Notes under the pieces: model-generated
What the model was told of the DNA's origin: nothing
What the model saw: the letters and a program-made list of their open reading frames with translations, nothing else
Database searches by the model: none
Program-made: the position numbers and the translations under genes
Shown: one piece after another, positions 16,159 to 16,186 of the stretch
How positions within the stretch are numbered: the first letter of the stretch is position 1
How the letters are laid out: each line of letters begins with the position of its first letter
Sequence record: MZ726797.1
Origin: Escherichia phage vB_EcoS_AVIO78A
Length of the DNA stretch: 57,811 nt
Strand: one strand, 5' to 3'

Positions 16159-16186
16159 GCCTCAGTGTGTTAACTGAGGCTTTTTT
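16159..16186 (+). terminator. hairpin GCCTCAG-N8-CTGAGGC plus T6 directly abutting the next start codon; same element occurs inverted at 52221
   Basis: direct reading. Confidence 0.5.

Follow-up and report, generated by a model that had tools for sequence, protein, structure and literature searches.

Two promoter-hairpin cassettes of a 9NA-like siphophage as candidate devices for masking the ribosome-binding site in read-through RNA

In the insertion sequences IS10 and IS50, translation is reportedly silenced by fold-back inhibition: RNA that originates outside the element pairs with the ribosome-binding site. In bacteriophage T4, the genes e, soc, 49 and I-TevI carry an inhibitory hairpin at the ribosome-binding site, and a promoter is located inside the 5′ strand of that hairpin (PMC3014915). 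Long transcripts that are initiated upstream hold the Shine-Dalgarno sequence and/or the AUG in a helix; transcripts from the late promoter are made without the 5′ strand and are translated (PMC3014915). The promoters in question are gp55-dependent late promoters (TATAAATA), and the effect was demonstrated experimentally, amounting to 100-fold for gene e (PMC3014915).

The DNA analyzed here, hereafter “the window”, is a stretch of 57,811 nucleotides from Escherichia phage vB_EcoS_AVIO78A (sequence record MZ726797.1). The source is a 9NA-like (Sashavirus/Nonanavirus) siphophage of the E. coli-infecting clade. It is 96–97% identical to PJ16, KarinMuster_Bas82, PDP46 and Sashavirus 536P12, and about 80% identical to the Salmonella phages Sasha, SP069 and 9NA and to Klebsiella phages such as Carvaje. 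At two places in the window, called site 1 and site 2 below, the Shine-Dalgarno sequence GAGG is enclosed in a stable helix (-15.3 and -12.4 kcal/mol, respectively, for the isolated hairpins), as it is in T4 gene e.

Anatomy and setting of the two sites

Site 1 is flanked by two genes of the + strand. Upstream, a small ORF of 47 amino acids (16000–16143; taken from the ORF list, assigned to phrog_13897 and annotated in PJ16, Bas82, Sasha and 9NA) is the last of an operon that contains NinH. Its TAA stop codon (16141–16143) is found 15 nt upstream of the base of the hairpin (position 16158). Downstream is a head-morphogenesis gene of the Mu F/SPP1 gp7 type (16187–17146; Pfam PF04233, phrog_2468). 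Between the two, the + strand holds an extended -10 element, TGaTATAAT (16148–16156), which is without a good -35 and ends 2 nt before the hairpin. It is followed by the hairpin core GCCTCAG-TGTGTTAA-CTGAGGC (arms at 16159–16165 and 16174–16180) and by a T6 tract (16181–16186). The ATG at 16187 comes directly after the tract, with no gap. A preliminary description of this DNA had placed the core and its T6 immediately before the head-morphogenesis start codon, and they are indeed found there, at 16159–16186.

By folding and by a terminator scan, the complete site 1 hairpin is GGCCUCAGU/ACUGAGGCU (16158–16181), with nine pairs, five of them G-C, closing a GUGUUA loop. Together with the T6 tract, these are the features of an intrinsic terminator, and the tract is predicted to complete such a terminator for read-through transcripts. 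In phage Sasha, the homologous hairpin carries a terminator annotation. The Shine-Dalgarno sequence of the head-morphogenesis gene, GAGG (16176–16179), is located within the 3′ arm, 7 nt before the ATG; the sequence between the hairpin and the ATG contains no second one.

At its other end, the head-morphogenesis gene overlaps a convergent gene of the - strand by 4 nt (17143–17146), with no terminator between them. The same junction is an intergenic gap in 9NA and in Sasha, where a terminator is annotated. Transcription from both sides should collide at the overlap.

Site 2, also on the + strand, is preceded by a complete promoter (52179–52219). It comprises an A/T-rich upstream block, a -35 element TTGACA (52191–52196), a 17-nt spacer and a -10 element GATAAT (52214–52219), and it matches the consensus at 11 of 12 positions. 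The stop codon of the upstream gene (52182) adjoins this promoter, 37 nt before the hairpin; that gene encodes NADAR here, an HNH endonuclease in Sasha and other products in other relatives. The arms AGCCTCA (52221–52227) and TGAGGCT (52239–52245) enclose the loop GTTAACACACA, the GCCTCA/TGAGGC core spanning 52222–52244. On folding, the full hairpin is UUAGCCUCA/UGAGGCUAA (52219–52247), with 9 bp and an 11-nt loop. No U-tract follows it, and its tail, TAAACACAA, is not terminator-like. Again the 3′ arm contains GAGG (52240–52243), 10 nt before the ATG, and the sequence holds no other Shine-Dalgarno before that ATG. At both sites, the annotators of Sasha marked the GAGG of the 3′ arm as the ribosome-binding site. 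The ATG at 52254 stands 6–8 nt past the stem and 9 nt past the core; thus, the earlier statement that each hairpin abuts a start codon is correct for site 1, and at site 2 the hairpin is near the start codon without strictly abutting it. According to the ORF list and the terminator scan, both sites are preceded by genes of the same strand, with no intergenic terminator in between.

The gene after site 2 (52254–53021; PF17762, phrog_1033) encodes a ParB-like protein with a ParB/Spo0J/Noc-type N-terminal domain and a helix-turn-helix (HTH). It matches the structures of Spo0J, ParB and Noc with E-values from 2e-7 to 3e-3, and is a true homologue of this family.

When site 1 is reverse-complemented and aligned with site 2 (52222–52244), 22 of 23 positions agree and there is a single 1-nt indel. 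This bears out the near-exact reverse complement that had been described between the -10 GATAAT and the ParB-like ATG. Within the window, the exact 16-mer GCCTCAGTTAACACAC is found only at these two places, on opposite strands, and hairpins with GCCTCA/TGAGGC arms number two, against 0.02 expected from shuffles. A calculation of our own puts the number of bare 17-nt inverted matches to be expected in 58 kb at about 0.1; the length of the repeat alone is therefore not decisive. What sets the pair apart from chance is that both hairpins lie between a -10 and a start codon and that they are conserved in all relatives. Beyond what had been described previously, the sequence indicates that the 3′ arm is the Shine-Dalgarno sequence, that the -10 of site 1 is in the same register as that of site 2, and that site 1 is, by prediction, a canonical intrinsic terminator. 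Because the 3′ arm holds GAGG, the CCTC of the 5′ arm is the complement of the Shine-Dalgarno sequence.

A folding scan and a comparison over five clades yielded a third instance of this layout, divergent in sequence, on the - strand at 3557–3588. There, a -10 element, TAGACT (3588–3583), is overlapped by the hairpin GACTTCAGTT/tgtgtaaaac/AACTGGAGTT (3586–3557). The Shine-Dalgarno sequence GGAG (3562–3559) is in the 3′ arm, the ATG is at 3550, and transcription is predicted to start at about G3575, just past the 5′ arm. The stem is imperfect and bulged, and it has been maintained across five clades. Two of its pairs are compensatory, and a base of the -10 takes part in one of them.

A similar arrangement was observed on unrelated metagenome contigs (Ga0180007; 3191–3222 in L057 and 1704–1735 in L063). 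They read TTGACG, 17 nt, GATACAAT, ac and GCCTGAG-cctaaaaa-CT(C/G)AGGC: a promoter close to consensus, then a comparable hairpin after the same 2 nt. Here, however, AGGAG stands apart, downstream of the hairpin.

The site 2 promoter belongs to a genome-wide family, ttaaAATAATTCTTGACrgATTrCA, of about 13 near-identical copies on both strands. It has one mismatch to AATAATTCTTGACrgATTrCA; site 1 is without this part. The copies are located at 1463, 3619, 5062, 11099, 13322, 14928, 18682, 26805, 44869 and 44932 on the - strand and at 18977, 50218 and 52183 on the + strand. Their leaders are related (catcaa..gaac..GGAG/CTGAGG), and the family apparently drives most operons of the phage, including, by prediction, the structural block that starts at 19044. 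In four divergent intergenic regions (5022–5076, 11059–11113, 14888–14942 and 44892–44946), the same back-to-back cassette is present: on the + strand, the spacer motif of the - strand promoter reads TTGCAA, followed by a 17-nt spacer and TAAACT. One 55-nt block thereby seems to hold two overlapping, opposite promoters, both predicted. Repeats of another kind, tandem and in frame, were observed in two ORFs of the - strand. One has a period of 30 nt and about 14 copies (41937–42347, in the ORF 41856–42887), and the other a period of 21 nt and about 5 copies (56826–56930, in the ORF 56700–57482).

Conservation in relatives and inversion of the loop

For comparison, 12 distinct variants were assembled from GenBank phages, IMG/VR and metagenomes. 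At both sites, 2 nt separate the -10 hexamer from the hairpin in every one of them. The extended element TGnTAYAAT is kept at site 1 in all clades, the site 1 variants retaining the TG, and it persists in the Klebsiella phages despite an unrelated (non-homologous) upstream gene. From the extended -10 and this conservation, we infer that the site 1 element is active as a promoter. At site 2, promoter and cassette are almost identical in all relatives while the upstream gene differs.

These comparisons bear on a simple explanation of the two hairpins. Site 1 could be a plain intrinsic terminator of the NinH operon, and site 2 a paralogous hairpin left over without a regulatory function. The Shine-Dalgarno overlap and the -10-like hexamer of site 1 would then be by-products of tight packing, and the head gene would be expressed by terminator read-through. 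Such an explanation draws on the canonical hairpin and T6 tract of site 1, on the terminator annotated in Sasha and on the missing -35. It also draws on the duplication of regulatory elements elsewhere in the genome: an identical 29-nt bidirectional terminator, TTTGCCCCGGACAGTTCCGGGGCTTTTTT, is found at 9063–9091 and at 26540–26568, a second regulatory hairpin copied to two places. Most relatives have the T6 tract; it has been lost from L038 and L060, which have nonetheless retained the -10, the hairpin and the Shine-Dalgarno sequence. Thus, the tract is dispensable in some lineages, and the conserved core is the arrangement of promoter, hairpin and ribosome site rather than termination. A plain terminator also leaves unaccounted for the conservation of TGnTAYAAT across a mosaic boundary, the enclosure of the read-through RNA’s only ribosome site in a stem of -15 kcal/mol, and the invariance of stem and -10 register at site 2, where there is no terminator. 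We therefore hold this explanation to be unlikely, although it deserves to be kept in view.

Small inversions of hairpin loops have been described in chloroplast non-coding DNA and, as quasipalindrome template switching, in bacteria, where they are regarded as neutral mutational events. Alignment from the -10 to the ATG shows sites 1 and 2 to be colinear in Sasha/SP069, 9NA, the Klebsiella clade, L038 and L060. The sense-strand site 1 loops of relatives (TTACCACGA, TAACTCTA, TAACCACG, TAATCACA and TTACCCACAA) resemble the site 2 loop, TTAACACACA. They are also like the leaders of other promoters of the genome, such as gaaACACACTGAGG before the gene at 14856. The loop TGTGTTAA is restricted to the E. 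coli clade. When flipped, the loop of this clade matches those of the relatives at 7–10 of 10–11 positions; unflipped, it matches at only 3–7. Thus, the two orientations noted in the preliminary description hold for this window but not for the original state. The alignments indicate that the opposite orientation is derived, and that only the loop (equivalently, the whole palindrome) was inverted, in the putative ancestor of the E. coli-infecting clade. Either an inversion within the hairpin or conversion from site 2 in the inverted register may have been the cause.

The inversion is energetically neutral for the hairpin. A search for an un-inverted copy of site 1 in the E. coli clade found none; there is thus no sign of an invertible switch. 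When IMG/VR was searched for the exact 16-mer, the matches outside the 9NA-like phages were unrelated coding sequence, which argues that the element is not mobile beyond this group.

Changes in the stem appear to favour pairing in the sense-strand RNA. U.G wobbles have arisen independently in 9NA, BDX09P1 and PDP46. One stem pair is C-G in most variants, U.G in 9NA and U-A in L060; the metagenome search that yielded L060 used a pattern that left complementarity free. Covariation over sites 1 and 2 amounts to one compensatory pair; there is little variation, and the observed score was reached by 92 of 500 shuffles. In the variant KPN_H2, the innermost pair is broken.

Between the site 2 cassette and ParB, PDP46, Bas82, L048 and L050 carry an additional small ORF. 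The cassette remains at the head of the operon despite the insertion, from which we conclude that it belongs to the operon start and not to ParB as such. The inserted ORF (438–668 in L015/L016; 557–796 in L048/L050) reuses the Shine-Dalgarno sequence, the ATG and the next few bases of the cassette, the reused start being ATGGCTAA in PDP46/Bas82 and ATGTC in L048/L050. This points to a recombination joint just inside the coding start.

Masking of the ribosome-binding site and competing explanations

On balance, we lean towards the view that the two sites are paralogous promoter-leader cassettes that mask the ribosome-binding site in read-through RNA, with site 1 also acting as a terminator. The proposed layout runs from a -10 element through 2 nt, GCCTCAG (the complement of the Shine-Dalgarno sequence), the loop, (C)TGAGGC with its GAGG and a further 7–10 nt to the ATG. 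Polymerase that arrives from the upstream operon would transcribe both arms, and the hairpin would form. At site 1, the hairpin and the U6 would end the transcript of the NinH operon. In any read-through RNA that continued, at either site, the ribosome-binding site would be locked in a 9-bp stem. A transcript from the local promoter, presumably starting at the CA that ends the 5′ arm, would be made without the complementary arm; it could neither terminate nor fold, and would be translated. In this manner, the head-morphogenesis gene and the ParB-like operon would depend on their own promoters and be shielded from transcription that enters from upstream.

The usual start site of transcription is a pyrimidine followed by a purine. 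A CA dinucleotide 6–8 nt past the -10 is recurrent in the other promoters of this genome, and at both sites a CA 8 nt past the -10 ends the GCCTCA arm. By these σ70 start-site rules, transcription is predicted to start at A16164, the final base of the arm at site 1, and at A52227, its counterpart as the last base of the 5′ arm at site 2. The folding energies differ accordingly between the two kinds of RNA. To open the RNA from the Shine-Dalgarno sequence through the AUG, 14.7 kcal/mol (site 1) and 14.4 kcal/mol (site 2) are needed in the read-through form; with the predicted starts, 5.0 and 6.1 kcal/mol suffice, and most other leaders of the genome require 5.5–8.5 kcal/mol.

The order of elements is informative as well. 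At the other terminators of the genome, a hairpin scan found the terminator first, then the promoter and then the Shine-Dalgarno sequence. Only at site 1 does a -10 precede the terminator hairpin, which is sensible only if transcription starts inside the hairpin. Hairpins were identified by this explicit scan; a crude per-gene folding screen flagged too many leaders.

Some observations weigh against the masking model. The -10 of site 1 has no recognizable -35. A benefit of insulating the ParB-like operon is not evident: the promoter further upstream is from the same family as that of site 2, so that no temporal difference is apparent. Finally, the stems are so conserved that a palindrome selected as DNA would look alike.

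Such a DNA palindrome could be an operator over the +1 of both promoters, bound by the ParB-like HTH protein as a KorB-like autoregulator or by some other dimeric phage regulator. The known ParB-family sites, such as the KorB OB of RK2, the N15 SopB centromeres in promoter regions and parS, are contiguous palindromes of 13–16 bp or clustered repeats. The palindrome here is centred just downstream of the -10, a classical repressor position, and the first gene after site 2 in the window encodes the ParB/Spo0J/Noc homologue. Moreover, the inverted loop leaves a double-stranded site intact, and the site 2 loop is nearly invariant among relatives, for which the RNA model has no need. However, the arms are 10–11 bp apart, and the spacer between them is variable and differs in length by 1 bp among relatives. 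A contiguous palindrome of about 13–16 bp or clustered repeats, as in ParB/KorB-type sites, was sought at the two sites, and only two copies with split arms were found. There are no further half-sites or clusters in the genome, GCCTCA occurring 11 times versus about 28 expected. The three independent wobble substitutions break the symmetry of the DNA and keep G.U pairing in the sense strand, and pairing between the Shine-Dalgarno sequence and its complement suffices to account for all of the arm sequence. In several relatives, moreover, another gene stands between the cassette and ParB. We thus consider an operator improbable.

A better candidate target for the ParB-like protein is present elsewhere in the window. 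Nine 19-bp palindromes of the form TARTRCA-N5-TGYAYTA (0.25 expected) cluster in two long non-coding regions, at 17–35, 153–171, 182–200, 18696–18714, 18759–18777, 57528–57546, 57567–57585, 57654–57672 and 57675–57693. They may be operators, iterons or parS-like sites. The same two regions share a 100-nt A/T-rich direct repeat that is 91% identical between its copies (18792–18891 and 57707–57806). The preliminary description had proposed a shared operator or RNA control element and a ParB-type protein as a candidate binder. The shared element stands, and RNA control is its best-supported form. The operator part found no support, and the ParB-type binder is made improbable by the split arms, the lack of further half-sites, the arms explained by Shine-Dalgarno pairing and the better array of 19-bp palindromes.

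The DNA and RNA levels could also be combined, an idea that strikes us as very improbable. The palindrome would be a DNA operator for a ParB-like HTH protein of the CTP-switch type, and the RNA hairpin would silence read-through, so that autoregulation is not bypassed. The ParB-like protein would then autoregulate its own operon and co-regulate the head-morphogenesis gene, making it a KorB-like global regulator in a virulent phage.

A function in the RNA other than masking of the ribosome site is also conceivable. The hairpin might be an element of RNA processing or stability, or the target of an RNA-binding protein, for instance an RNase III site or a 3′-end protector of the upstream message. 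The read-through RNA does contain a stable stem; site 2, having no U-tract, needs some other role for its hairpin in upstream transcripts; and the loops of most relatives share the motif T(T)AAC.AC. On the other hand, nine base pairs make a short stem for RNase III, one clade has the loop inverted, the loop varies at site 1, and the fixed 2-nt distance to the -10 is left unexplained. An Rfam scan of the whole window at gathering thresholds returned no match. We accordingly give this possibility very little credence.

Two further candidates were rejected. N4 early-promoter hairpins typically have a loop of 3 nt; an N4-type DNA-hairpin promoter was dismissed, as the loop here is much longer and no virion RNA polymerase is encoded. 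A pause/antitermination site of the lambda-Q type was dismissed because the transcribed region contains no second -10-like element.

Comparison with known systems

If the masking model holds, 9NA-like phages have fitted into about 45 nt a promoter and a terminator together with a ribosome-binding site and its antagonist. Such phages depend on the host RNA polymerase and on just one family of strong promoters; by means of the cassette, neighbouring genes of the same strand would be uncoupled, in a σ70 counterpart of the T4 late-gene device. The model would be of use in annotating this little-studied group, which includes members of the BASEL collection, and it is a caution that a start site may lie hidden under a “terminator” call. 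The cassette could also serve as a small insulator in synthetic constructs. The loop inversion would be a clean natural example in which function resides in the stem and not in the loop. The general understanding of gene regulation is unchanged by these results.

Site 1 shares with intrinsic terminators its GC-rich 9-bp stem, its 6-nt loop and its U6, 15 nt past a stop codon. It departs from them in that the stem contains the Shine-Dalgarno sequence of the next gene and a -10 precedes it, and in that the U-tract is absent at site 2 and at site 1 of L038 and L060. Like ParB-family operators, the two palindromes are located at promoters, and a ParB-family HTH protein is encoded beside one of them; unlike those operators, they occur in two copies only and have arms of 6–9 bp split by 10–11 variable base pairs. 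The difference between site 1 of the E. coli clade and that of all other clades, in which the loop is reverse-complemented and the arms are unmoved, comports with the small loop inversions of chloroplasts and bacteria. In contrast to those cases, gene conversion from the paralogous site 2 is an alternative here.

As in IS10 and IS50, a segment upstream of the predicted start of transcription would pair with the ribosome site, and the promoters are of the σ70 type. Those elements differ in that it is a transposase gene that is protected from external promoters, the structures have a longer range and there is no terminator function; there is also no sequence relation. With T4 gene e and I-TevI, the geometry of -10, arm and ribosome site matches at all three sites described here. 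The phages are unrelated, however, and the promoters of the present phage are of the host σ70 type, one of them with an extended -10. Site 1 is also predicted to double as an intrinsic terminator, unlike the T4 hairpins, and the effect established for T4 is, for this phage, a prediction.
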